DNA of 61,652 bases, filler included, from Sluysia triapertura (lineage: Eukaryota), in the NCBI GenBank assembly GCA_046118255.1. It is 4 parts of 4 records of this genome, joined end to end, with 100 filler letters (N's around TTAATTAATTAA, not from the genome) between each part and the next. Parts side by side here need not be neighbours in the genome. Positions count along the whole stretch, not along the records: positions 14,999 to 30,289 come from JBJNIA010232121.1; 3 more parts are not named here. One strand, written 5' to 3'. Made by a program: the position numbers and the translations under genes. Below the pieces are notes generated by a model, which was given only the letters and a program-made list of their open reading frames with translations, had not been told where the DNA came from and made no database searches. Positions 87 through 57,921 of the stretch are shown piece by piece (the stretch's first letter is position 1; every line of letters starts with the position of its first letter).

Positions 87-172
87 ATACTGTATTGAAG
101 CTTTATGGAAAATACATTAAATTTTAGGAAAACTCAAAAAATCTTTAGAAATTTAATAGTAAAATTTCTAAC

Positions 173-1183
173 GCTTTTGAAATGGATTTAAGTGCAGCTT
201 TTCTCTCCCGATGAAGAAACCAATTCAGAATATTTCTACACAATTTCGGAGGGCATTTTGTTTCGACAGAATCTGAATTTGGACACGCCAGTCTGAAAAA
301 GCGGTAATAATCATTTACAGACCAGGCCTTGCGAAGTCGAACTGCGAAGTCTAAACATGAATCTTGATAAGGAGGTGGCGGTAAACTGGCTAGAGTAGTA
401 TTAATATTCAGGAAATCTCGGGTAAACATGTAATACAGGATTCTGTATGCAGTAAATTCAAGATGATCTTCACATTCGATTCCTTCTTCGTATAATAGCT
501 TGATCTGACTTTGACATTGATTAAATTCCTCGTGATCACCAGCTTCCAATGCAATCGTGGCATGCACCTTATACACACGCAATGTGAACTCATCTCGCAC
601 ACACTGCACGGTGAGATCCTGTCGAATACTCTTCATCTGTTCGCACACATGTCGATAATCTAGATGCTGATCATACCACAAACTCATACAATGAACTAAA
701 GCTTTCTGAAGAACCAATGGTGGTCGCACTTCACTGGGTTGAGGAGCTCGAGTAAGTCTAAGATATCTTTTTTCCAATTGTTGGCATGTTCCAACGATAG
801 GACCAGATTGAGTTTCGTCAGCAACGACAGTGTTGACTGTTCCTACCCGGTCTATGCTCCAAGTTTCATCAGTATATCCGATATCTCTTGCCGATTCCAC
901 GTTCGCGCTCACGTTGTCATTTGAATCTACAGGAGCCTCCACAAACTGTCCCGAAGAATTCAAGTGCTCTTTAAATCGAGACGCTCTGTGAGCTAATTTC
1001 TCTGAACTTACTAAACATTGCTCCAGTTGAAATTTCTTTTTCCCTTTTTGTTTCTTTTTACTTATATTTTTGTTGGTAACAGTTATTTGAATTCCAGTAT
1101 CTTGGTTATTGTTATTATTACTCTCATTGTGGTTTTGATTTTCCGTTTGCTTGAGCTTCATCAATCGGCCGCCTTTTCCGATT
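173..1183 (-). CDS. LENG8: LENG8 exon 7 (SAC3/GANP domain)
   Basis: Acceptor TTAG ending at 1184, donor GC|GTTAGA at 172; SAC3/GANP motifs in ORF 145..1224. Confidence 0.93.
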
Positions 1184-4100
1184 CTAAGATAATGACTCGT
1201 TTCAAATTCAAATTTAAAAAACATTAACTACTTCATAATAAGGATTTGAAAATACATTTGAATGTTATTTTATTGTAAATTTCAGTAAGAAAGTTTTATT
1301 TAAAATTATTTACTGAGAAATAATTTGATAGAGAAATTTTGTTAGAAAAATCATTTGGTCTTAATCGATTTTATTTTAATAAAGATTTTTCATAAAGAAC
1401 AATAGATGTCAGAAATGAATTGAATTGAATTATATTATCAGATATTGAAATAAATTTAGAAAATTTTAGAAAATCTGACTTACACAAAATCACTGCAACT
1501 GTAAATTATATCAAATTTGAAAATTGAAAACCGATTTTAAAAAGTATGGATTTTGTGAGCGGAAAATCACCAGATCAAGTACTAATTTAAAAGATTACTA
1601 TACATTTCGATAACGCTTTTGGGATGACTAATACTAATATTGTAAAGAACAAAAACCAACCTGTTATCAATCGAATAAGGATTTGAGTTTTGTTGATCTT
1701 GATCGGCAGAAATCAAACGAAACTTTTTATTCTTCGAATGAAACTGCCGCTTATTAAAGTTGGAAGTGGAAGATGGCGACGAGGAACCACGACTTCTCTT
1801 ACGAATATTCTCGTTTGAATCACGCTTAGACCGATAATTGTCATAATCCTCGGCAATTGCGATCACATCATCGCCCGAAGATTCAGAATTCGACTTGTAG
1901 CGAATCCAAGATGATTTTGATTTATGACTAGAAGAGCTACGACGATTTCGACAGTGTCGAGAAATTGATCGAGTAGATCTACGCGACCTAGATTTAGATG
2001 ATCGAGACGATCGAGACCTCGACGATCTCGGCGATGATCTTGATCGCGAATCAGAACCAGATCTGGATTTTGTTCTATTTCTTTTATTACTTCGGTTAAA
2101 TCCGGTACTATATCTGGCTCCTCTACCTCGTCCGCGTGTACCACGTGCTAAATTACCACGAGTTGAGTGTGTCATGACTGGGGATCGAGACTTGGAACTA
2201 ACTGATGACTTAGAACAACTGACACGAGCCTTACTACGAGTACTATTACTACTGAAATTAGATGCATTAACAAAATGGGAGGCTGTATTGGAAGTGTTGC
2301 CTCTTTGGGAATAGAAATGGGCATTAGAAATATTATAATTAGTGGTGACAGAATGGGTAGGTAAGTTGTTATGTCTGGAAATAGATGTGGCTGTGGCCGA
2401 CAGTGGTGTTCTTCCATAATTAGGCGGCAGGTAATTAGAGGCCACTTGCAACCTAACAAATATCCCTTGTTAATTATCTAATTTGAACACATATCGGTTA
2501 ATGATTCAGAATAATGTTTTATAGAAAAATAATAGATTTATTATAAATTTAATAAAATATAGTTCGAATATTATGAAAAATTTCGCACCATCAACACTGC
2601 ATCAAAGTTTCGCATCTTTGAAATAAGATTAAATTTTCTACTACACTAGAACTCCAAAAACTGGAACATCCTGAAACGGGAACAACTTTCTATAACTGGA
2701 ACACACTTGTAGCTTTTATTTTTACTATAATTTTAGAACAGATAATTGTGTTTTGTTTAAATATTATTAACCACCATATTTTATTCATTTTTGTGATTAT
2801 TTCTTTTACTTTACAGATTTTGTTTGACACAGTATTTTAGTATCTAACTTAATACTTTGCATACCCATATAATGGGGCATCGAAATCAAAACGAAATCAA
2901 ATCAATTTAACACTAAGCGATAAATTTTAGAAAAAGTAGATGACACTGACAATAATATATTAGATGAATACACAAAATTTCAGAACTACTCTTTTCAACT
3001 TAAGAAAACAGAAACATGAGATATGCAAGCCACATCATCATCGTCAAATAAAATGAAATGATGTGAAAGGAAAATTATTAGCAACTTGAAAGGAGCTCAA
3101 CTTGTATAAATGATTCGTGTCGAAGAGGGTCTAACTATATCAGGTCCAATACCAGCAAATCTTTTATTTTAACTAAAACTAACTTCTTCCTGAAACTTGA
3201 ACATTGAACATGTTCCAGTTTGGGGAGTTCTAGTGTAAACGATTTGGAAGTTCTTCGAGGTACGCGGTTTTTAATTGGAATCTTTTAAGGAAACAGACCT
3301 AAGATGATTAACACCTGAAATTGATGTAATATTCTTTTCGAGGAAATGAAACTATACATATGCTAAATTTGCTATTTAAGATAGTAATGCGAAAATGTTT
3401 GAAGAATATTCGACAGAACATTATTGGATTCGAAGACCATTATTTATGAAAAGTAAACTATTTTTGTTACCATTTATTTACTTATCTAAGTTCATATAGA
3501 CCTTAAAATAATATCACACAAAATAAAATTTTGATCTGGTGATATTCTCTTGAACCACTACACAAAATGCAATCTTAAAATATGTTTTGTTTAGTTACAT
3601 GATTATATACCTTCGGCTATTTCAAATATTGAGAAAATATAAGTTAAGACTTAGAGCTCAAATTACGTTTGTAATTATTTAGATATTTTAAATTAATTTA
3701 ATAAAAACATTTTGTTAAATAAAACACATGACTCGAATTACTTCAACCGTTATTATTTGAAAATTAACATTAAGCATCGTAGTTCGAAGGGTCCCATTTT
3801 ATATACATGAGGTTTCATTTGTTGTTTCACTTAGGCCTTATTTATTGCTATCGACATAATTGTTAATGCAAATTATCAAATTTATGCTAAAAATGATTTC
3901 ATTGCTGTTGCGGAAACTTTAAGTTACCGAGTGTACAGAGAAAAGTAGTACTTCTGATCATTTAAAAACTAGAAGTACAAATAGCCGGTGACTGAGTACT
4001 TTAGAAAATCGGACTAAACTCATCATTTACTCCAACCCAATAATTGTTATGCTGTGAGTAATAATGTAATGTTTGATAATAAATTTAATAACGAAAAAAC

Positions 4101-14998: not shown

Positions 14999-16490
14999 AT
15001 AAAATCATTTGATGTACATCGTTCACGTTAACTTTATGATTATCAGAGTTGCATGTATTTTGATTTAACATCGTTTGTAATTCCTCTTTATTTTTGGTTT
15101 CATCTAAATTATTTAACCTTGGCATCCTATTGGGATTTCTAGTAATATGGGATGATTCATTTATAAATAATTTATAAAACATTTCTTGACTAACAATTAT
15201 TATGTTGAAACTCGCATTAAGCTTTGTCAAATAAACTTTATAATCTAATTTTTTAGATACATCTATCAAAATTCAATCTAATTCTTTAACATCATTTATA
15301 TGCAAATCGTTAGTGTTATTATCTTCGAAGCTTCGAATTGGGTTTCCTACATTATCACTTGACAAAATGTGTTCTTCTAAATTGCGTACAATAAAACACT
15401 TGTTATTGTCTTTGTTATTCTTTAAATACTCATTACTAAAGACTAATAAACTAAATTTATCAAATACATTCTCTGAACATTTATAACTACTTTAATTTAA
15501 TTGATGACAATTTTTACTACCGGACGATTCATTAAATTCACCATTAACTTTAGAAGTAGATAGAATAATGTTTTCAAGCATGTTCGATTGATTCGCCAAA
15601 TCAGGATGTTTGATTATTCCATAATTTTCATATTCATCCCAGTCTCCTGTTTCATCTAAAAAAACTTTCTGGAACTTATTCTGTATGATTCTCTGATTGT
15701 CTGGATTCTTTTTAAACTGGTAATTGTCCCAATTTCGTTTTGAATGAAACTTCTGTTGAGAGTTGCAAACCGCTAATTGTGATTTTTAAAATTATTCAAC
15801 TGTCTGGAATTTTTAATCGAATCTAATTTTGTAAACCGTGATATGAAAAATTTTGCTGTCTGGAATTTTTAATTGTGTCTAATTTTTGTTTTTTATTTTT
15901 AAATCCACCCAATCAGGTTATTAATTAGTGAAATAAACAATGATGATTCTGATTGGGTGGTGTACTAGCAAAAATCAAAATAATTGAAATGCTGATGACT
16001 GATTACTGACCGTCATCAACGTTGACAGCATAATGAAAATGTAAATAGGCTGTCATCGTTGGTGATGGCAGCAACCAGTTTAGACGACAATCATTAATTT
16101 TTATTTATTTCATTTAATTTTTAGGTACCGATTCGATAAAAGTACAATGGAAGTAATAATAATAATAGTAAGGCTGATAAGATTATTATTATTATTCTCG
16201 TTTTTAAAATTTGAAAAAAACATAAATCTTTACAAAACCTTTAACACGAGCTTTCTGTCTATTCTTTTGCTTCTATACATATGAAATAAAAAGGAATAAG
16301 AAGAATGTTGTACTGTGAAGGAACAACAACAACTAAGTGTATAATGTATTATTTGTGGTTGTTGCTTCACAGTATAATAATGAAATCTTTAAAGCTATTC
16401 AAAATCTGGTTTGAAGAATGTAATGGTTTAGGTTGTAAGAAAGTAAGGGATGTTAAAATAATTGTTGAAACTTATTAAAAGGTTTATAGT

Positions 16491-17360
16491 TTGAAACAAG
16501 ATTTATGCATTAATTTTGGTGGCTTCAATATGGTAGCACCAATATTACCATTGAAGGATGGAGTGTTCGGAAAACCCATGGGAGAGGTGATGTATACTTA
16601 CAAATGTAAGAAAGTTACGGTAAAACTATATGATAGTATTGAATGTACAAATGAGTTACCTGTAGAATACAATAATGAAAAACGATATGTAGAACCGGTA
16701 ACTAGAATTATTGTTCCGAGAGAAAATAAGGTCAAAAAACTGGATTGTTCAGTATTAATGTCACTATTGTATAAAATGCATGAGAACTATTGGATTTCTT
16801 TACCATCAAGAATTAGAGTAGAATCTCCCCCAGCTTTAAGTTTAATAGAATTAAAAAAAGGAATTATCTTTCAAACGGAAAATGATATTTTAAAAAGTGG
16901 AATGTATCAAATATCAGATATTAAGAAAGCATGGAATGAGATATTGTTTCCAATTAAAAGAGCACGAATATTAACCGAAATAGTGGATGCTGCATTACCA
17001 AAAGGCTCTAAGGCACCTAATTATGAATTATTACTAACACAAGATCACTTTGAACAGGCAGCGAAACATACTTTACACAAAATTTGGGGAAAATTTGCAG
17101 TAATTGGACAATTCTTTTCAGGGTGCATCGGAATCTATATTGTTATCAAAGCTATTATTATTGTATGCACTCAAGTGTTGTCAACGTATAACATCTATCG
17201 ATTAACCGGCTGTACGTGGAGAATCATCACAGGATTGATTCCCTCCATAGGGCATCATGTGGTGAGTCATGAACATACTCAAGTGATACAAGAACTGTCT
17301 AGCCCAAAAGTACCTAAGAATTATAATAACCACGAGAAATCTGGTGAAAGAAAACGATGA
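16491..17360 (+). CDS. Chuvirus (Jingchuvirales)-like envelope glycoprotein, C-terminal half (endogenous viral element)
   Basis: Ordered motifs GEVMYTYKC, CTNELPV, EPVTRI, DCS, W..LP, GMY...DI...W..I.FP, then W.KF..IGQFFSG.IGIY TM segment and a second hydrophobic helix (GCTWRII..LIPSI). This is the pattern I recall for chuviral G and its retroelement-captured copies. The N-terminal half is absent. Confidence 0.8.
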   Translation: MKQDLCINFGGFNMVAPILPLKDGVFGKPMGEVMYTYKCKKVTVKLYDSIECTNELPVEYNNEKRYVEPVTRIIVPRENKVKKLDCSVLMSLLYKMHENYWISLPSRIRVESPPALSLIELKKGIIFQTENDILKSGMYQISDIKKAWNEILFPIKRARILTEIVDAALPKGSKAPNYELLLTQDHFEQAAKHTLHKIWGKFAVIGQFFSGCIGIYIVIKAIIIVCTQVLSTYNIYRLTGCTWRIITGLIPSIGHHVVSHEHTQVIQELSSPKVPKNYNNHEKSGERKR

Positions 17361-17478
17361 GTCCTTAAATCCGCTGAAAATTGTTGAAGAAATACGACAG
17401 GAAAATAATAAAGACGCCATCAATAGAAAAAACTGTTATTATCTAAAGAAACATTATAATGGTTATAATATCTATTAA

Positions 17479-17730
17479 ACAATATTAGTAAATAAGTACT
17501 CCGTAAAAGGATTAATAGATACTGGATCACAAGTTTCCGCAATGAAAGAAAAGGAAAAGATAATAAGTAATAATGATTGTCTAGAAGGGATAAACGGAGA
17601 ATTAATAAGTGTTAGAAGTCTTTTAGTCGATATGGAAATATTAAATCAAAAGGGAGAACAAGACTTTACGTTTTAGACGAATGCTCAGAAGAAATGGTGA
17701 TTGGTATGGATATACTACAACAATTGAAAG
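17479..17730 (+). pseudogene. Retropepsin (A2 aspartic protease) domain 1
   Basis: ILVNKYSVKGLIDTGSQVS (DTG at 17518-17526) ... one frameshift ... ECSEEMVIGMDILQQL. Confidence 0.85.
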
Positions 17731-17999
17731 ACGTAGTTATACATCCGATTCAAGGATTACTAACATTAGATGAGATGAAAGAAATCGCAACTGAGTTAAA
17801 TATAATTGCTATTAATTCAGACTCTATTGAAAGCTTAGATATGACTGAGAGCGAAATAGACAAAATATTCTCAATGGAAAGTGAAGATAGTTCTGAGACG
17901 GAAAATCTATTTAACACCGCAATTAATACAACACCATCCGATGACATGTTGAACGAGACACCAATAGATGACACAACAAGTAAAATTACATTGGAAGAT

Positions 18000-18318
18000 A
18001 CTACAAGAAGAAGTAATAATCCTAGAGCAAAGGAACGACGAAGAAATAATGAACGTTATCAATAATATAACAAAGAACATCTTTTCTAATTACCAAATCC
18101 AGAATAATGTTTTAAAGTATAAGATGGAAGATAAAGTCCTAACGGTGGTACCTCAGTCGAGGAAAGCGATAATATTAACGAACTACCACCACGGTCAATT
18201 GGGAGGCCACCTTTCAACCAGAAGAACTATTGAAAGAATAAAAAGGAAGTATTACTGGATCAATATGGAATACGAAATCACACAGTGGTGTAAAAATGGT
18301 AAAATGTGTAATTTTTAG
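18000..18318 (+). pseudogene. Ty3/Gypsy-type integrase N-terminal zinc-binding (H2C2) domain with no catalytic core
   Basis: VVPQSRKAIILTNYHHGQLGGHLSTRRTIERIKRKYYWINMEYEITQWCKNGKMC; one expected Cys is Gly. A protease follows directly, not a DDE core. Confidence 0.85.
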
Positions 18319-18429
18319 AATGAAGTAGTAAAGGAACAAGCCAAACAGGAAGGCATACAAGATGATGATACTATGATAATACTATGAAACAAAATTTTAT
18401 ATGGCAAGATATAGAGCCACCTCCTTACA

Positions 18430-18720
18430 GATTGTATCAGGATATCATAATTAATGGAAAGCTAATACAAGGACTAATCGATACAGGTTCAGACGTAAGC
18501 ATCAGACGATATGAAGATATACCAGAACAAGAAAAGATAATGTTATTGGAAGTATTTGAAAAATTTGATGGAGTCGATACATCAACCATGATATTTAACT
18601 GACAGAAAGTAGAAATTAGAATTGAACAGTATAACTTTCACATAGAAATAGCGATAGTACGTAACTGTCCAGAAGAAGTAATAATCGGAATGGACATATT
18701 AGAAAAGTTCCCAGATATAC
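18430..18720 (+). pseudogene. Retropepsin domain 2
   Basis: IIINGKLIQGLIDTGSDVS (DTG 18480-18488), in-frame TGA at 18600, then IVRNCPEEVIIGMDILEKF. Confidence 0.85.
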
Positions 18721-19089
18721 TTATAAAAAAGGATTGAACTAAAAAAGAGGTTAAAGAAACCGAATGTCATAGAAATCTTACCCAATAGAAATCAGCTTAT
18801 CTTTCAAAAAGGAAAAAAGTATAAATACATGTTTAAAGGAAGAGATCAGTACACAGAAATGGAAGATTTATTACAAAGACTAGAAAAGGCTATAAAAAAC
18901 CCGGAGGACATAAACGAATTAGAAAGTCATCAACACTATGATGAATTCACGTAATCCTCTACAATTATATCCAGACTTGAAACATAGACTAAACATAATA
19001 ATACAAAATTGGCCATTTCACCAAATAATTCATATGAATTATTTAGTAATATGGCTGATATGGAAAGAAATTGGTATGGAAAAGCTAAT

Positions 19090-19326
19090 ATGAAAGTCAT
19101 AATGAGAATAGATGGAACGGAACAATAAATAGAAAAGGAATTTCACGTTTGACTGACAGTATCATCTTTACTAGATTTCGTAAAAACGTATTTGAATATA
19201 ACTCAAAAAATAAATTTGAATTATAGAGGAAGAGTATTAGACAGAGATTATGGACTATATTTAATTGATTTTGCATTCCCAATAAACTATCTAATTGACG
19301 ATGACGAAATCACAATTACAATTGGA
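19090..19326 (+). pseudogene. Ubiquitin-like domain copy 1
   Basis: MKVIMRIDGTEQ*IEKEFHV*LTVSSLLDFVKTYLNITQKINLNYRGRVLDRDYGLYLIDFAF...EITITIG follows the beta-grasp pattern (TV..L helix, L.Y.G..L, L.D[FY]); two stops. Confidence 0.6.
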
Positions 19327-19830
19327 AATGATGAAAATAGTAACCCTAAATCTCCTAATGAAGCACAAACATCTTCGGAAAACTGTTGAAAATGGTTGAA
19401 GAAATACGACAAGAAAACAATAAAGACCCCATCAATAGAAAAATCGTAAATCGGGAATTATATCGTGAGGTGTTTAGAGAATTAGCAATAAGTAATCAAC
19501 AACGAGAAAGTTGTTACCTAGGCGAGTACAACCAACTTATCTATTAGACGAAGCATTGAATAACGAGAGAAGAATATTAATGCTTCCTAGAAGAGAACCA
19601 AGTCCACATAAACATGATCATTTATATGAAGAATTAGAAGACGCATTAAAAGAACCAGTAAATTCAATGAGACTAAAAGTAGTAATCGACATTGTTTTAG
19701 AATCAGGGGAATTGTTACATGAATACTCACATCTCAAACACCGACTAAATGAAATTGCACAGTTCTGGATACCTAGTCGAAGGGCAAAAATTTATCAATT
19801 ACTCCGTGATATAAATATGGAGGAAGATTA

Positions 19831-20061
19831 ATTAAGGTAAAAGTGAGAGTGGAAGGACAAAATATGATTCTAGAAAAGAATTTTCGTATTAATATAGATA
19901 TAGACTTGCTAAAATCATTTGTAGAAGCTCGAGCAGGTGTCTCCGGAGAAATAGATATGTATTACAGAGATCGAATTTTGCTGGAAGATACATACCTATT
20001 GGATTATGGATTTCCAATAGATTTTCTAACCGTTCAGGATGAAATTATTGCAATAGTGAAA
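19831..20061 (+). pseudogene. Ubiquitin-like domain copy 2
   Basis: IKVKVRVEGQNMILEKNFRINIDIDLLKSFVEARAGVSGEIDMYYRDRILLEDTYLLDYGF...EIIAIVK aligns with copy 1 and with ubiquitin (LK..V....G; L....L.DY). Confidence 0.65.
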
Positions 20062-20224
20062 AACAATGAAAATGACGGTCCTTATAAAATGAATTGTTTT
20101 AATCATCATTTCGAAATATGGAGAGAAAATGAAATACGAAATCAAAGAAGGGATAGATTTCTACCGCCACGAATAAATGAACATTCCTACATGGCTCAGG
20201 ATAAAGAGAACCATAAGCATACAT

Positions 20225-20480
20225 TTTTATCAACAATTGGATTTAATGGAAATAAATATCGACACAGGCGCGACTCATTCATTTATTAATGTAGAAATAT
20301 TAAATAAAGAAATGATACAAGATATAACTCCACATTTTGGTATCATAACGTCGGTAGTAGGTGAAAAAATAAATTTAATAGGAAAATTAAAATGCGAATA
20401 ACAGTTGCTGGAAGAATAATTACTTGTACTCCAAGAATTATAAAGGATTCTCAATATGACACAGAATTGCTACAGGAATA
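20225..20480 (+). pseudogene. Retropepsin domain 3 (truncated)
   Basis: INIDTGATHSFIN (DTG 20261-20269)...ITSVVGEKINLIGKLKC, frameshift, ITVAGRII. Confidence 0.8.
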
Positions 20481-20559
20481 GAATATACTAGAATGTGACG
20501 ATCTGATAATCCCATGCTTCACTCCTGATTACTAAAACGGTGTATTAGGTTGTGGTAAT

Positions 20560-21793: not shown

Positions 21794-22230
21794 TCAATTA
21801 ATAAGGCTCTTTAAAACAATAAAAAATTCAGTAAACGATGAACTAAATAAATAAAACATTTTTATATTAACAACAAAATGTTTATCTAATAACAAGTTAA
21901 ATGTTACTATACAAGCTAAAAGAATAAGAATAAAAATTAACCAATTGAATTTTTTTGTTTTAAACAAAGATTGACGATCCACACCTTTATTACTTAGACG
22001 TGGATGACAATGATTTTCATCATATTCCTTATCCTCGAAACAGAATGGATATTCATCGCAGCGTTGTTCACGAGTAAAACAAAAATCGCAGGATTTCTCA
22101 TTACAATTTAGAGTAGCTTCACTAAAAATCATATAAACATTTGTAGGCACATTGTAATTAATGGGTTTTTCTTCATACACAATAAATGTTGTGCTTGTAA
22201 AGGAAGAAGCATACTTGCCGTAGATTTACT
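21794..22230 (-). CDS. LDL-receptor class A repeat plus transmembrane segment (exon or pseudogene fragment)
   Basis: CNEKSCDFCFTREQRCDEYPFCFEDKEYDENHC followed by hydrophobic WLIFILILLACIVTFNLLL. Upstream exons could not be reconstructed. Confidence 0.55.
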
Positions 22231-40369: not shown

Positions 40370-40640
40370 TTCACTGTCAATTGCTCTGATTAAACATTCT
40401 CGCATATACCTAAAATATGGATTAGAATCTTTTCTAAAATGCAGATTTTATGATATTTTTCAATTTCGAAAATACTTTTTCAGTTGGATTAAGTTGTTGA
40501 GAATACGGTGGACTAAATTTTATTTCATGACCCATATAAGATACAAGATGTGATTTATGTATGGGTACATTATCCATAATGATTATCATATTTGACAAAA
40601 GCATTAAATTATCTGAAAAACCTTGTAAATTAGACAAAAT
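40370..40640 (-). mobile_element. Tc1/IS630-type DDE transposase fragment
   Basis: IIIMDNVPIHK...PPYSQQLNPTEKVFSKLK matches the DN...H / PPYSPxLNPIE motifs. Confidence 0.85.
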
Positions 40641-41669
40641 GTATAATAAAATATAAATATATTTAAATATAAATAAATAAATATATAAATAAATATAAAT
40701 ATATAAAAATAAAATATAAAATAAATTATATAATAAAAGTATTTGTTTATTAGAATTATAGATATGAAAAAATAAAATGGAATATTAGCTATTTTTGTTA
40801 CCTTTTTTTGAAACAGTATAGCACATTTGGTTAAGCATGAAATTTGATTCATGATAATTCAAGACTGACGAACTCGTTAATCAAAATCATCGAATAAAAA
40901 TTTAGTTTCATTTATTACTAAAAATAATATTCATCACATTTTATTTTGAAATATAGTTTTACATTTTTATATGAAAAAAAAGCTTTCCAAATTCCATTTT
41001 ATATTTAATTATATTTTATATTTTATATTTTATTTTATGTTTAATTTATTTAAATATTTTATTTATTTTAATATTTTAAAATTTATTTTAATATTTTATT
41101 AATAAATTAAAAGTTTATCATTGTTTTTGTAAATATAGTTTGTTTATATTTAAATAAATTATTATTATTTTTGTTTCTATAAACTATTCATAAAGTTTAT
41201 TATTGTTTAATTTAAATTTCAAAGATTTTATATTTTATAATCACATTTTAATTGTACAAATTAATTTTCTATTTTTTGAAAATAGACATGATTATGTAAA
41301 ATTTAAATTTTTTATAAATATTATTAAATTGTACAAATATTTTTGGAGCTATTTTACAATAAATATTTTTATTAAATATATTTCAAATTCTAAATTTTAA
41401 TGCCACTGTAAAATACAAATCATTAAATATTTGATGCATTAAGTATGTGAAAAGTTTTTTCTACAAAAAGTTTTTAGTTTAAAAGATGTAGAATTTGATT
41501 AATACTTATTTCGGTTTGATTTAGTTGGCTTAATGTGAAGTTATATATTAACAAAGACAATGTTAATATAAATAAAATACTTAACTAATTAAAATAAAGA
41601 GAAAATGAAATAAATAATAATAATAATAATGCCTAATTATAACTATAAACTAACATATATAAAATTTAG

Positions 41670-50211: not shown

Positions 50212-53200
50212 ATGAATGTTATTAAATTATTTCTTTATATAATGCCACTATACAAATTACATGGTATTAATGGAATCGAAGATTTTTCTGATAGGTTTCA
50301 ATTTAGATTTATTCCATTCGTGCTGGTAGTGTGTGGAATAACAGTTTTTTTATGCGGCTTTTTGCGATGGCCAATTACATGTATATTTGCAAATAATCCG
50401 TATGGTATGAATTTTCATGAATATTCGGAATATTTATGTTTTACTGAAGGCACTAGTGTAATTCAATATCACATTTCTTCACATTCAAATGATATAGATA
50501 AATATTCTTTACGCTACTATTCATGGTTACCGTTTTTATTTCTTTGTCAAATAATTATGTTTTCTATACCAGAAATTATATGGAAAAAGGTGCATAAAGA
50601 GTGTGTAGGATGTTCATTAAAGCCGATTATTGTGATAGGGTTAAATATAAATAATAGTGATATGGATGATAAAGAAAGAAATTCAAAATTAAGTGACTTA
50701 ACTGAAGCAGTTAGAAAAATAAACAACTTCGTTAGATTTTTATTTTTTAAAAACAATTTTGTCAAATTATATATGCATTTTCCTCAATAAACATACGAAA
50801 ACTTATTTTATATTCACCTTAATATATTCTAAAATAAATTTTTGGTCAAAACTTGATATTCATTTTATTTGAAGTTAAACTATAATAAAATCTAACGTTT
50901 GTAATCTTAATAAATTAGAATTTTTCTATTTAATACTAGGCAGAAAATTTATTCTTAAAAAGGTTGAATTCTACTGTTAGGACCATTTTTATGCGACTAA
51001 CAGACTCTGCCGGCAATTTTTCTATTATTGCTACTTTGATTACGATGATAGACCTAAATGATAGGTTTACGCAGAATCCAAAGGCATTTATAAATGGATA
51101 ATTAATGTCCATTGTTCTAAAACGTAAGTTATTTATTGAGATAAATAGAATAAGCTTCTCTGTGTTATGCCGTTCAGATGGAGACTGTATTTTTTGTAAT
51201 GGTAATGAAATGTTAAGAGACATTAAGAATAAAGTTAAACTTGAAGTGGAATATTATGAAATGTTCTGCTTAGTTCCATTGGAGAAGAGTGATGATATTA
51301 AACATTGCATAAATTTCAGTCATATAAATACTGCAACAAGATATTAGCATTTCAAATGCTATCCTTTCAATAATTAGCACAATAATTGGTAGTCCTAATG
51401 TATTTTCACTGCTTGGTGCAAGGAAATATCAAATGTTAGTACACTAGGTTGAGAGAAATACTATATTTTCATGCGGTTTTCCTAGCACTTAACCATGGCA
51501 AAAAAAAATTGAGCAGGTTCCGGTTACGGTAAATAACTTATAAGGTAGGATGGGCGTTACTGCAACTGTAAATTAACAATTCTTATCTTAAACTATATCT
51601 TTAAATGAATGTTTTTCCTTTTAATTATGCAATTTAACTTCCTTTTATTCCTTTAATAATTATTCTTAGAGGTTCTTGTACTACCTTGCTTTTTAAATTA
51701 CAAATCAAAAATGCACTTTACATAATAAATAAAACAATGAAAATTTAACAATTTATTCGAAACAATACAAATTTATAATAGACATTTATAAAAAAATCAG
51801 GTGCAACAATAAAAATAAATTTAAAATAAAAACCTATTAAGTATTTAATTTATAATAGTAACGAATTTTAAAATGAAGTTTAACCGTCAATATATCGGGG
51901 AAATCAAGTGTATAAATAAAAATTTGGTAGATTTTATGATATTAATTTCTGTTCAGATTTAACTAAAACTTAACTGGACAATTATAAAATATATTAAACG
52001 GGTCCACCTATAATCTAAGTTTTATATCTCACGGAAGACTTAGTTATAGGATTGTAATATGTCAACGCTACGAAAGAGTCCTTACTATCAATTATGTATA
52101 TCTATTGACTACTGATTAATGTTACTTAATTGTATCTTTTTATAGCAGACTCAACAACTTTACGAATCAAATACAAAAATTAAAATAACAAAGTTTAATA
52201 CTCTAAATATTCTACGAATTTTTATTTTTCACAAAGAAAATATTTAATAATACAAGTGCGAATAAGTGAATATTTAATAATATAAGTGCAAATAATAACA
52301 ATAATAGTAAATATATCAATTTAAGGATTTCTCCTAAATTAAATTATTGAATAAGATTTTAGTATGATTTTAACCCAGGTGAATACTTGAGTGTGGAAAA
52401 TGAATATGATTTTGAGTATATTTTAATACAGCAAAACTATTTTATTTTTATGTACTTTTATAAGTTATTATTGATTTAATTAATTAAAAAGTTAAACAAA
52501 ACAATTTTATAATTTTAATATCTACATAATCTACATAATATCTACATTTCAAAAAATAACTTACGAAGTTCATGGAATTGGGAAATAAAATAAACAAAAT
52601 GAAATAAGATAGACAAAATTGAGTGTTGCAGAATAATATTATTAGCCTTCTCCAGATGCAATTGATGTTGATAAACTGAAGGCCTTCAGATTAATTATAA
52701 TGTTTTTGTTAAAATTGCGAATAAAACCAAAATTTCTGCTGAAATTGTGAAAAATAAAATTATAACAATGTGACTATTTGTATAGGCTAACAGCCAATCA
52801 AAATCGAATAGATTTCTAGAATGTTCTAGAAACTTCGTTGTATTTTATAAGCAAATTTGTTTTGGAAAATAAGTTTCTTTTTTTATAAAATTGGTCTTTT
52901 AAATAATTTTAGACAATTGTAATGACAACCTAACGTAACTTACTCATTTAAAAAAATTTGACCTCAAAATTTGACACATTTTACAATGAAATTAGGGATT
53001 AAGTGATAAAATATAGAACGATATACATATGTAATCAAAAAGTTTATTACTGTAATTATTCCATCAATAACCTTCATTGTGATCAAATATGTTCAGATCA
53101 TTGTTGTCATTTAACCCATGTCAATCTCTATCCCAGCCATAAAGGTCATCCCGGGGAGAATGGGAGGCGTCGTCAAACTGTCCAGGAGAAAGCAAGTCGA

Positions 53201-55319: not shown

Positions 55320-57921
55320 ATTATTATTATTTGCAGTTTTTCTAAGATATTAATTAACTATTAAAGTTTTATCTCGAACATCAAACTAAGATGAAATAAA
55401 TGAATAAGGGAGAAGAAACCCATCTAATTGTTTACCATGTTTCAGTATCTGAATAATAGACTAATTATTAAAGATTCAAACCAGTTATTTCAATAAGAAA
55501 TATTTAATTTAACCTACTATTACCTGCAGCGAACTTAATTAACCAATATATAATTTATTAAACTCGCAGTTACGATGACATTTAAGTAAACAAGTCCACA
55601 CATAACTTTTCTACATGCTAGAATTATACTATAAACAAAATTATCGTTTTAAAATAAGGTAAGTAACAGATCTTATTGATGAATTATGTAAAAATGTCAC
55701 TTTTGAATTACTGCCATTCATGAGTTAATTTGCTTTAGTGTAATAATAGAAAATAAAAACAGTGATCAATATACTATGGATAATAATAAAACAATTTTAT
55801 GTATAATAACAAAAATTATCAATGCATTTTTCCAGTTAATCACTTAAAGCTCTTTTGAAGAAACAATTGAGCCACAAATTCAATGTGTTAATTTTGAATC
55901 AATATTCGATAAAAATGAACAATTTCTTTTCTGTGCCTGTAAATTTTCAATCAATTCGGATTCTAAAAATCTGGAGTCTATTTTTGAGCACAAGTTTTTA
56001 TATCACGATATTTACGATTTCATGAATGGTGTCTATATTAACATTGACTCGAAATCAATTTCCGTTATTTTTTTATTAATGATACAAATTATATTAATAT
56101 AAAATGATGCGGTGGGATTGATTAATTCTATCACTAGCCGATTTAATATTTTCCTTATGAGCAAAGTCGATTAATGGGTTGCCATTCTTTGGTTTTGTGT
56201 AATTGTTGATTCTGGAATTTTTAAAAAACTTTTGAAACTAGAAACTTTCGCCGTTTTTATCTTCATCCTTTATTAAAACCATTCTGTAGCTTTTATTAGG
56301 ACTATTTGTTTTTTGATTAATTTTGTTTAATTTTTTATTTACAATTGATTTTTGATATGTAATTTTGATTTTTTTTTCGTCCTTTTCATCATTAGTATTT
56401 TTAATTTTAGAGAATTCTTCAGCCGGTATTTCTAATTTTTTATTCGCACAAATGACTTTTCCATTTATAGAAACATCTTCTGTTACTAAATTTTGAATTT
56501 ATATATTTAATCTGAATTTAAATTAGTTTTATGCGAAAACATTATTATCTGAATAATATTAAATTAAAATGAGCATATATTTATGGAGATTATAATAGAG
56601 CATTTATGCAGATTTTATGAAGATTATATTACAATAGTAATTTACATGTATTTGGTCTTTTGTAATAGTTAAATGTTTGTTAGTATTCATCTTTTGCGCT
56701 GCTTTTCGTATTTTATTAGATTTAATTTGTGAATGTCTGAACTTTAATTATCCGAATACAATACACACCATTAACAATTAACTAAATGTAAGAAAATATC
56801 AGTATAACGCATATATTCCAAGTTACGCAAAATCCACTGCAGAAATTAGTTTGAAGGCTTTGGTTTTAATCAAGGAGTTGTATCCAAATTCAATATTTAA
56901 ATTGTCGGCGAGCTGGTGTCAGCTTTTCGTGAAGAGGAATGATAATTTGTAAGAATAAGAGATAATTCAATAATGTAGAAAATTGGTTGTTAATCAGAAA
57001 TATACAATAATTTAAGGAAGAGGTATGAATATCGAAGAATTCAAGAAATTTTGTATGACTAATGTCATGGACGGAACGAGTAAGATGATATTTATGGTGT
57101 GAAAATGAATTAATGTTCGGAGAATATGATAAGCCAATTGAAATTGAAAATTTGACAGAGAGAAGATGAAAATAATTGTCTCCGTAATGAAGAAACTTTA
57201 TTTGAATGAAAATAAACATTTTTGCAACAATTTATTCTTATCTGGATTCCTAATTTTCTAAACAGGATAAAAATTATTTACTGATCACGATCATCATTCA
57301 AAAAATAAGACTAAAAGCGTGATATGTAATGGATATTTACTGTAATTTCTTACTATTATCTTGTTTAAAGATGTTTCTAAATGTCTTCAAAATACTTTTG
57401 AAAGTTTATTCTACCGTTTTTGTACATTCTCACATACATTAAAATTATTTCGTAAATATTCAGATTCACTCTAGATATTTAAATTTATTTAGATTTTTAA
57501 TAATTTTATTTTTATTATTTAGGTTGCTCAATGTGTTTTACCATTAAACATATTACTGGAGAAATTATTCGTTATACTTTGTTTGCTCTTTTTAGTATCA
57601 GGAGCTTTTACATTAATGTCTATATTTTATTGGTTAATAAAACTATTTACACGTCAACGCGTAAGGTATTTTGAAAGACTTCTTAAATACCACAGTGACT
57701 ATCGTCGACAATTTGATGATTCTAATAATAATTTGGATAAAGTAATTACTTTTGAAGAATTGACAAAAGAATTAAATGTTAATAATAGTTTTCTATTAAT
57801 GATGATTGGTTATAATTGTGGTGAAATATTATTAGCTGAAATTCTGTTGAAAATAGAAAATAATCAGCTTAGTGCTAATATGAATGGTAAAAATGCTGAC
57901 AATCAAAAGCAGTTCTTTTGA
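50212..57921 (+). CDS. inx: Innexin (gap-junction protein), 3 exons, 395 aa
   Basis: Exons 50212-50730, 54984-55253, 57523-57921, all phase 0. Motifs EDFSDR, PITC, EYLC, YYSWLP, KILYLCN, FPRYAFC, QCVLPLN..EK; four hydrophobic segments. Confidence 0.93.
52794..52850 (+). promoter_or_regulatory. CCAAT box, five-unit heat-shock element, TATA-like box
   Basis: GCCAATCA at 52794; tTTCt-aGAAt-gTTCt-aGAAa-cTTCg at 52813-52837; TTTTATAA at 52843. Confidence 0.55.
53100..54135 (-). pseudogene. ORF-X copy 2, decayed
   Basis: LFDKFLVSLYPELLI, IP*VWLTGIV/LTNTNLVS...DPFIKAKQVI, KDLSFLP align in order with copy 1. Confidence 0.6.
54412..54651 (-). pseudogene. RING-H2 finger gene copy 2
   Basis: CSICLKTLRKH...HRFHFRYI...ICHFCR; two Cys ligands lost; aligns with copy 1 with at most a one-residue gap. 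Confidence 0.7.
56780..57110 (+). mobile_element. pogo-family transposase relic in innexin intron 2
   Basis: FKLSASWCQLFVKRN (CENP-B-type HTH) and FKKFCMTNVMDGT (pogo C-terminal FKK..I.N.LDG motif); the middle is deleted. Confidence 0.6.

Follow-up and report, generated by a model that had tools for sequence, protein, structure and literature searches.

Within a 61,652-nucleotide (nt) stretch of DNA from Sluysia triapertura (assembly GCA_046118255.1), about 4 kb (16491-20502) carries pieces of a decayed retroelement polyprotein. We refer to the whole stretch, AT-rich animal DNA with N gaps, as the window. The interpretation we prefer, with a probability of about one in two, is that a giant, Burro-like element of the Ty3/gypsy type once stood here in a flatworm, and that the locus is its dead internal remnant. 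The reverse transcriptase (RT), the RNase H and the integrase core would have been lost by two internal deletions. Membership of this family of elements is, in itself, very probable. It is shared by two of the rival accounts below, which differ from ours only in how the order of the parts arose.

All pieces lie on the plus strand. The order is the C-terminal half of a fusion glycoprotein (env), retropepsin 1, an acidic linker, an integrase H2C2 zinc finger, retropepsin 2, two successive units of a putative helical segment and a ubiquitin-like domain (UBL), and retropepsin 3. A sequence-only reading of the locus had named these domains in this order. PF24664, three retropepsins, the H2C2 finger and two UBLs were all supported. 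The features are as follows.

16491..17360, plus strand: class III (Monjiviricetes/gB-type) fusion glycoprotein, C-terminal half only, including a transmembrane (TM)-like segment, from PF24664, relatives and hydrophobicity.
17470..17747, plus strand: retropepsin 1, DTG motif intact, split over two frames, from the family protease profile.
17750..18000, plus strand: acidic linker, read from the sequence, with no Pfam match and no homolog found.
18004..18342, plus strand: integrase N-terminal extension and H2C2 zinc finger, RNase H tail and integrase core absent, from PF17921.
18432..18728, plus strand: retropepsin 2, DTG motif intact, one internal stop, from PF00077 and the family profile.
18826..19080, plus strand: putative helical segment 1, two stops, containing a 44-nt palindrome (19012-19055), read from the sequence.
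19081..19332, plus strand: ubiquitin-like domain 1 (UBL1), two stops, no di-glycine end, from its likeness to UBL2.
19595..19816, plus strand: putative helical segment 2, read from the sequence.
19819..20073, plus strand: ubiquitin-like (beta-grasp) domain 2 (UBL2), no di-glycine end, from its predicted fold and Atlas.
20216..20502, plus strand: retropepsin 3, DTG motif intact, two frames, homology fading 3', from the family profile.

The glycoprotein open reading frame (ORF; 16479-17360) matches PF24664, Monjiviricetes_fusion, with E 6.8e-43 over profile positions 367-619 of 653. A hydrophobic, TM-like stretch lies near 17112. Weak similarity to env perhaps reaches back to about 16350. The N-terminal half was searched for across the window and not found. 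Relatives came from phmmer: the env half, run as query in a full scan, gave 583 matches, the best being long proteins at 42-45% identity. Window env is 40-45% identical to the env of intact polyproteins, versus 21-31% for stand-alone glycoproteins of about 650 amino acids (aa). A retropepsin lies 3' of env in the same ORF in 14 of the 20 best env matches, versus 4 of the 133 others, a set that includes many stand-alone glycoproteins of that size. Window env groups among polyprotein-embedded copies in the env tree (support 85-93, none starred). In the window, protease 1 follows env on the same strand after about 57 codons, the frames differing in the decayed copy. An env search in proteins of 161-513 aa found none among 560 candidates, and env patterns had no relatives among viral contigs or prokaryote genomes. 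Elsewhere in the same glycoprotein family, env is joined to three Ig domains (P0077), to RNase H (P0085) and to a BEL/Pao-type DUF5641 (P0132; 25% identical to window env).

The relatives are intact and very large, their polyproteins spanning 3,426-4,844 aa. Two of them, L001 and L002, are metagenome contigs whose intact ORFs measure 3,426 and 3,703 aa. In eight relatives env lies upstream of RT in one ORF, and in seven of these, all those with both RT and integrase, the order of the enzymes is protease, RT, RNase H, integrase. The RT of L002 has Ty3 RT as its best solved-structure match (E 1e-90). The full order in L002 is gag, two helix and UBL modules, env, two proteases, RT, RNase H and integrase. 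Protease number ranges from one to seven overall. Among 18 long relatives, eight carry 2-7 and five carry at least three. The protease seeds were taken from relatives later counted, so the scores are not independent; multi-copy counts from Pfam agree. Proteases behind the integrase occur twice in P0152 and once in P0004, and in none of the others among these 18. In P0152 (4,844 aa) a single ORF encodes env, seven DTG retropepsins, a C2H2 finger, ankyrin repeats, RT, RNase H and integrase. An eighth protease-profile match there (1917-1997) was dropped; it overlaps the ankyrin region and arose from its own seed. P0152 also has several hydrophobic segments and no gag at its start, perhaps lost at the contig edge.

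Each kind of part in the window recurs within intact single-ORF elements. The earlier proposal was of a large element, related to Gypsy, in which a fusion protein precedes several proteases and ubiquitin-like cargo. These relatives bear it out: in them env, one to seven proteases, RT, RNase H and integrase share one ORF. Ubi/SUMO-like and BCL2-like cargo lies 5' of env in L002, L001, P0007, P0012, P0002 and P0003; the window lacks the part of the element that would precede env. P0002 (Pfam E 1e-3, below the cut-off), L001 and P0003 each have a Bcl-2-like domain ahead of env. In one relative, two helix and UBL modules stand in front of a Bcl-2-like domain and env. By eye, a hydrophobic leader stands ahead of env in relatives. 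In none of the relatives examined does a protease lie upstream of env.

Some relatives have further features. A separate exonuclease ORF of RNase T type (PF00929) lies 3' of the polyprotein in both metagenome contigs (L001:10617-12107 and L002:12085-13473). Behind the integrase, L001, L002, P0004 and P0006 have, by eye, a hydrophobic leader, an unassigned domain a few hundred residues long and, in addition, a TM-like segment. This suggests a second surface protein in these polyproteins. P0006 is an animal-type retroelement polyprotein, although its NCBI entry is a protein of a Flavobacteriaceae metagenome-assembled genome. That filing is likely to reflect bin contamination.

The three proteases claimed by the sequence-only reading were recovered exactly: the relatives' profile finds three, and no more, in six frames of the window. 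Protease 2 scored best (independent E-value 1.7e-16), followed by protease 3 (3.6e-8) and the two halves of protease 1 (2.8e-5 and 9.9e-5); the next best window match was 0.2. In Pfam, protease 2 is a member of RVP (PF00077, E 2.5e-9) and also passes PF09668. Proteases 1 and 3 are weak, with best E-values of 0.02 and 0.01, respectively. In the protease tree, proteases 1 and 2 are sisters (support 100/95) and protease 3 is an unplaced long branch. The best relatives of protease 2 are the two post-integrase proteases. Protease 3 has a weak tblastn match to the RT-adjacent protease of L002. We also used a classifier of RT-adjacent and extra proteases that called 25 of 26 held-out cases correctly. 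It inclines towards RT-adjacent for protease 1 (+8 bits) and towards extra for protease 2 (-5).

Two accounts of unrelated origin fare poorly against these data. Ddi1-type genes encode a UBL, a helical domain and a retropepsin. The UBL, helix and protease part of the locus might be a captured host gene of this type. Ddi1-type proteases are indeed the best PDB matches of protease 2 (E 0.005-0.1), which passes PF09668. However, relatives' proteases match protease 2 far better (46 bits, E 1e-8) and match PF09668 too. Protease 3, the copy behind the UBLs, has no Ddi1 match, and the actual order is protease, helix, UBL, helix, UBL, protease. We regard such a capture as barely credible. Chance nesting is also very improbable. 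Here, ordinary Gypsy debris would by accident have landed beside a glycoprotein fragment, from an endogenous chuvirus or a BEL/Pao element, and beside pseudogenes of host UBLs. No LTRs (long terminal repeats) or target-site duplication link the pieces, and the UBLs are tied to those of relatives at fold level only, as this account would have it. It is largely refuted by the intact ORFs that unite env with several proteases. Env is also closer to polyprotein-embedded copies than to stand-alone glycoproteins or P0132. The single strand also speaks against it. Furthermore, the A-rich bias of the plus strand is even across 16491-20500 and recurs in L001 and L002. Chance nesting is disfavoured because proteases 1 and 2 are sisters and the base bias is uniform.

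The UBLs are related to each other, with 27 of 82 residues identical (33%; z 22 against shuffles). UBL2 had no match in Pfam or in PDB sequences, and no relatives in viral contigs. A single-sequence model of UBL2 (predicted local distance difference test, pLDDT, 59) has a beta-grasp fold. The top Foldseek matches are SUMO-like and ubiquitin domains (E 4e-4), and Atlas features place it with ubiquitin clusters at 0.90-0.92. The modelled L002 module comprises four helices and a SUMO/ubiquitin fold (pLDDT 89.5, Z 11.7). Fold searches with this module filled with UBLs; the four-helix part was barely probed. The helical segments of the window had been described as helical domains. They are not detectably alike (z 0.9), and neither has a match in Pfam, Atlas or profile comparison. 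For segment 2 the best Atlas score, 0.76, is uninformative, and likeness to the helical domains of relatives is not above the null. Profile and fold checks, of the kind that the sequence-only reading had advised, support env, H2C2, the proteases and the UBL2 fold; the helical segments remain unmatched. The window UBLs are tied only weakly to those of the relatives.

The H2C2 finger and its surroundings bear on the question of deletions. This segment matches PF17921 (E 1e-13), with Ty3-G as the best PDB match, and lacks one expected cysteine ligand. The integrase profile match spans positions 71-183 of 223 only, and homology ends near the domain's own edges. From protease 1 to H2C2 there are 134 codons in the window versus 638-696 in all seven intact relatives; about 530 are missing. 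From H2C2 to protease 2 there are 41 codons versus 330-334 in the two relatives with a post-integrase protease; about 290 are missing. It is doubtful, then, that the pieces are separated only by point stops and frameshifts, as had been thought. Two internal deletions are favoured because protease 1 leans RT-adjacent, while protease 2 leans extra and has post-integrase proteases as its best matches; that none of 18 relatives has a second H2C2 also speaks for deletion. Protease 1 would then be the RT-adjacent enzyme. Protease 2, the UBL pair and protease 3 would be cargo behind the integrase.

The same segment can be interpreted differently. Homology that ends near the edges of H2C2 fits a contiguous piece of the zone in which cargo lies, after env and before pol, with a stand-alone integrase zinc finger and without deletions. 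Protease 3 would be the true pol protease, behind two helix and UBL modules, and the rest of pol would be lost by 3' truncation. From env to protease 3 there are about 970 codons, and the distance from env to pol ranges from 43 to 1381 in eight relatives. The nearest tree row of protease 3 is the RT-adjacent protease of L002. Moreover, sister proteases are often adjacent in the zone between env and pol (P0013, P0007, P0152). Even so, no second H2C2 was found in 18 relatives, and a lone H2C2 in none of the relatives examined. No relative has a UBL behind env. The region that follows the pol protease in relatives (dUTPase-like by position; Pfam gave no confirmation) is absent after protease 3, which is itself unplaced in the tree. 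We consider an undeleted slice possible, if somewhat unlikely.

Several observations weigh against the two deletions and the parent element that they imply. Each deletion would need an endpoint near an edge of the integrase N-terminal domain. The classifier margins are small, and protease 3 leans RT-adjacent too (+4). The pairing of proteases 1 and 2 could result from long-branch or composition attraction. In all five relatives that have UBLs, among 16 scanned, these lie upstream of env and never behind pol. A UBL profile made from relatives alone misses the window UBLs, and the profile-profile score is modestly over the null (22.7 versus 10.3 +/- 1.9; probability 23%). The order of the parent is not observed, because no intact copy of the window's own family was found. 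The host tree, drawn from one LENG8 exon in the window, has no named planarian, and LENG8 does not establish a triclad host. The exact polyprotein order claimed earlier stands in part: its components recur in relatives, but UBLs behind proteases occur in no intact relative.

The position of the UBLs, which precede env in relatives, raises a further explanation. The locus may be a mosaic of one or two copies of the same family, rearranged by template switching or after insertion, with the UBL pair moved from upstream of env. Repeat analysis identified the following.

17367..17431, plus strand: 65-nt direct repeat, copy 1, 89% identical to copy 2; similarity ends at 65 nt.
19379..19443, plus strand: 65-nt direct repeat, copy 2, from the repeat comparison.
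16308-16377: imperfect palindrome at the 5' break of env.
19012-19055: imperfect palindrome in helical segment 1.

The direct repeat lies at the end of env and between the UBL modules, and is far younger than the 28-33%-identical domain pairs. The palindromes are possibly template-switch scars. The repeat's young age and the pair of palindromes suggest that the DNA was rearranged locally. Against a mosaic, no gag, zinc knuckle or Bcl-2-like remnant was found near the UBLs, and all pieces are collinear on one strand. The UBL pair is flanked by proteases, yet no relative has a protease upstream of env. A mosaic is, in our view, distinctly unlikely.

Whatever its history, the window copy is inactive as an element. 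The homology path contains 9 stops and 10 frame changes, 19 breaks in total. RT, RNase H, integrase core, gag, Bcl-2-like and exonuclease sequences were searched for in the window, with only two short chance-level matches. We found no LTR pair, LTR-sized direct repeat or target-site duplication in the window. The absence of LTRs is to be expected of an internal fragment. None were found inside the L001 and L002 contigs either, which may be cut short. The earlier suggestion of a possibly infectious element is excluded for this copy, which has 19 breaks and, in the window, lacks the pol core. The env half is unbroken over 293 codons, while the rest of the stretch holds the breaks. We did not accept selection on this frame. 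The largest gap among 19 random breaks is as long with P 0.19, and P = 0.009 applies only if the position is fixed beforehand.

Ty3/gypsy elements produce a polyprotein, process it with a dimeric retropepsin, reverse transcribe in particles and integrate. In the parent element, a single long polyprotein would be translated. The hydrophobic leader before env would route the glycoprotein to the endoplasmic reticulum membrane. Retropepsins would cut the chain to release capsid, enzymes and cargo. Extra protease copies might provide dimer partners in cis, or serve separate cytosolic stretches beside membrane segments. The UBLs, without a di-glycine end, may act as integral binding modules or as decoys for the host ubiquitin system. 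Such a role would stand beside that of the Bcl-2-like domain of relatives.

Outside the remnant, the window contains host genes and a further transposon fragment, each identified by library match.

148-1227, minus strand: exon of the host gene LENG8 (SAC3/GANP).
50212-50787 and 57523-57918, plus strand: two innexin exons.
40437-40784, minus strand: DDE_3 (Tc1-type) transposase fragment.

For the LENG8 exon, flukes are the best named matches (52-55%) among the 120 matches listed. A tree of 33 rows picked from these 120, which include no named planarian, places the exon as sister to flukes plus a tapeworm (SH-aLRT 99). Because of this sister position, the host is likely to be a flatworm outside the flukes and tapeworms, judging from one gene. 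Minus-strand frames flank the remnant (21797-22225 and 15492-15785); one is cysteine-rich with a TM-like end. Pfam gave no convincing match for either. The remnant may lie antisense within a host intron.

In itself the locus is dead; it is of value for the family to which it points, in which a membrane-spanning polyprotein can carry up to seven retropepsins and tandem UBLs. This raises the question of why a retroelement keeps several copies of a protease that is an obligate dimer. It also adds to the case that such elements manipulate host ubiquitin and apoptosis pathways. Since UBL cargo and an env placed before pol are both in the literature, the gain is incremental; it would be larger if a live or helper-dependent lineage turned out to have the window order. 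A bolder proposal combines two ideas. Protease multiplication (2-7 copies, on both sides of pol, re-duplicated in each lineage) would be an undescribed family-wide trait of enveloped GAG-ENV-POL giants. The window would show a new flatworm layout, with a lone zinc finger and tandem helix and UBL modules behind env, possibly a mobile, pol-less, helper-dependent element supplying envelope and proteases. We think this unlikely.

Three known systems invite comparison. Capture of chuviral glycoproteins by BEL/Pao elements, offered earlier as a parallel, involves the same glycoprotein family but is not the closest case, since window env groups with Ty3-like polyproteins. In Anakin, a BEL/Pao element of mosquitoes (PMC7642597), an LTR retroelement carries this Pfam family. 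Superfamily and host differ: the window H2C2 and the RT of relatives are of Ty3/gypsy type. Membership of Anakin was rejected, given a Gypsy-type H2C2 and nearest env relatives fused to Ty3-like pol. The window holds the Gypsy-type H2C2 and retropepsin that mark Ty3/gypsy elements.

Closer are the GAG-ENV-POL Ty3/gypsy errantiviruses with HSV/gB-type ENV, reported from Platyhelminthes, Nematoda and Bryozoa by Chary and Hayashi (PMC13524379). Nine flatworm elements are tabulated there, six from Schmidtea mediterranea, and ENV-POL matches are also counted in Dugesia japonica and Girardia tigrina. The window likewise has a gB-type (class III), Chuviridae-like ENV upstream of Ty3/gypsy POL parts, and lacks intact GAG, ENV and POL ORFs. 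The printed S. mediterranea env rows show, by eye, the motif pattern of L001 and L002 env. This link to the window is indirect because what is printed is the other half of env, which the window is missing. The main text makes no mention of Burro, ubiquitin, polyprotein or extra proteases.

The closest likeness is to Burro/GYPSM1 of dugesiid planarians, with its huge polyprotein, in-frame env and UBL cargo; L002, L001, P0002 and P0003 share this layout or parts of it. As described in PMC6431247, the planarian Burro polyprotein has about 5,000 aa with Ubi2/SUMO-like and BCL2-like domains. Its env, with mononegavirus glycoprotein matches, lies in frame between gag and pol, after the BCL2-like domain and before the protease. 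Decaying Burro fragments with stops and frameshifts occur in Dugesia japonica (PMC6431247), and PMC8532177 and PMC11410931 describe Burro as abundant, expressed giant elements. These accounts overtake two statements of the sequence-only reading. That env normally lies downstream of pol is overstated, given env before pol in PMC6431247, PMC13524379 and eight relatives. That the architecture is unrecognised is also overstated, as env between gag and pol with Ubi/SUMO-like cargo is published (PMC6431247).

The differences are also clear. Burro exceeds 30 kb with an ORF of about 5,000 aa, and the window holds a 4-kb remnant without gag, BCL2, RT, RNase H, integrase core or LTRs, likened by description and not by sequence. 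PMC6431247 names a single protease for Burro and a single UBL, which lies upstream of env; in the window there are three proteases, and both UBLs lie downstream of env. No description of multiplied proteases in such elements was found in the literature covered, which excludes the primary Burro account and its supplements, where they may appear. We judge the element to work like Burro, with membership of Burro proper unproven. Like Burro, it has a mononegavirus-like env directly 5' of a protease. We conclude that the element is of a known kind, with two variant features: its multiple proteases and a UBL pair placed downstream.

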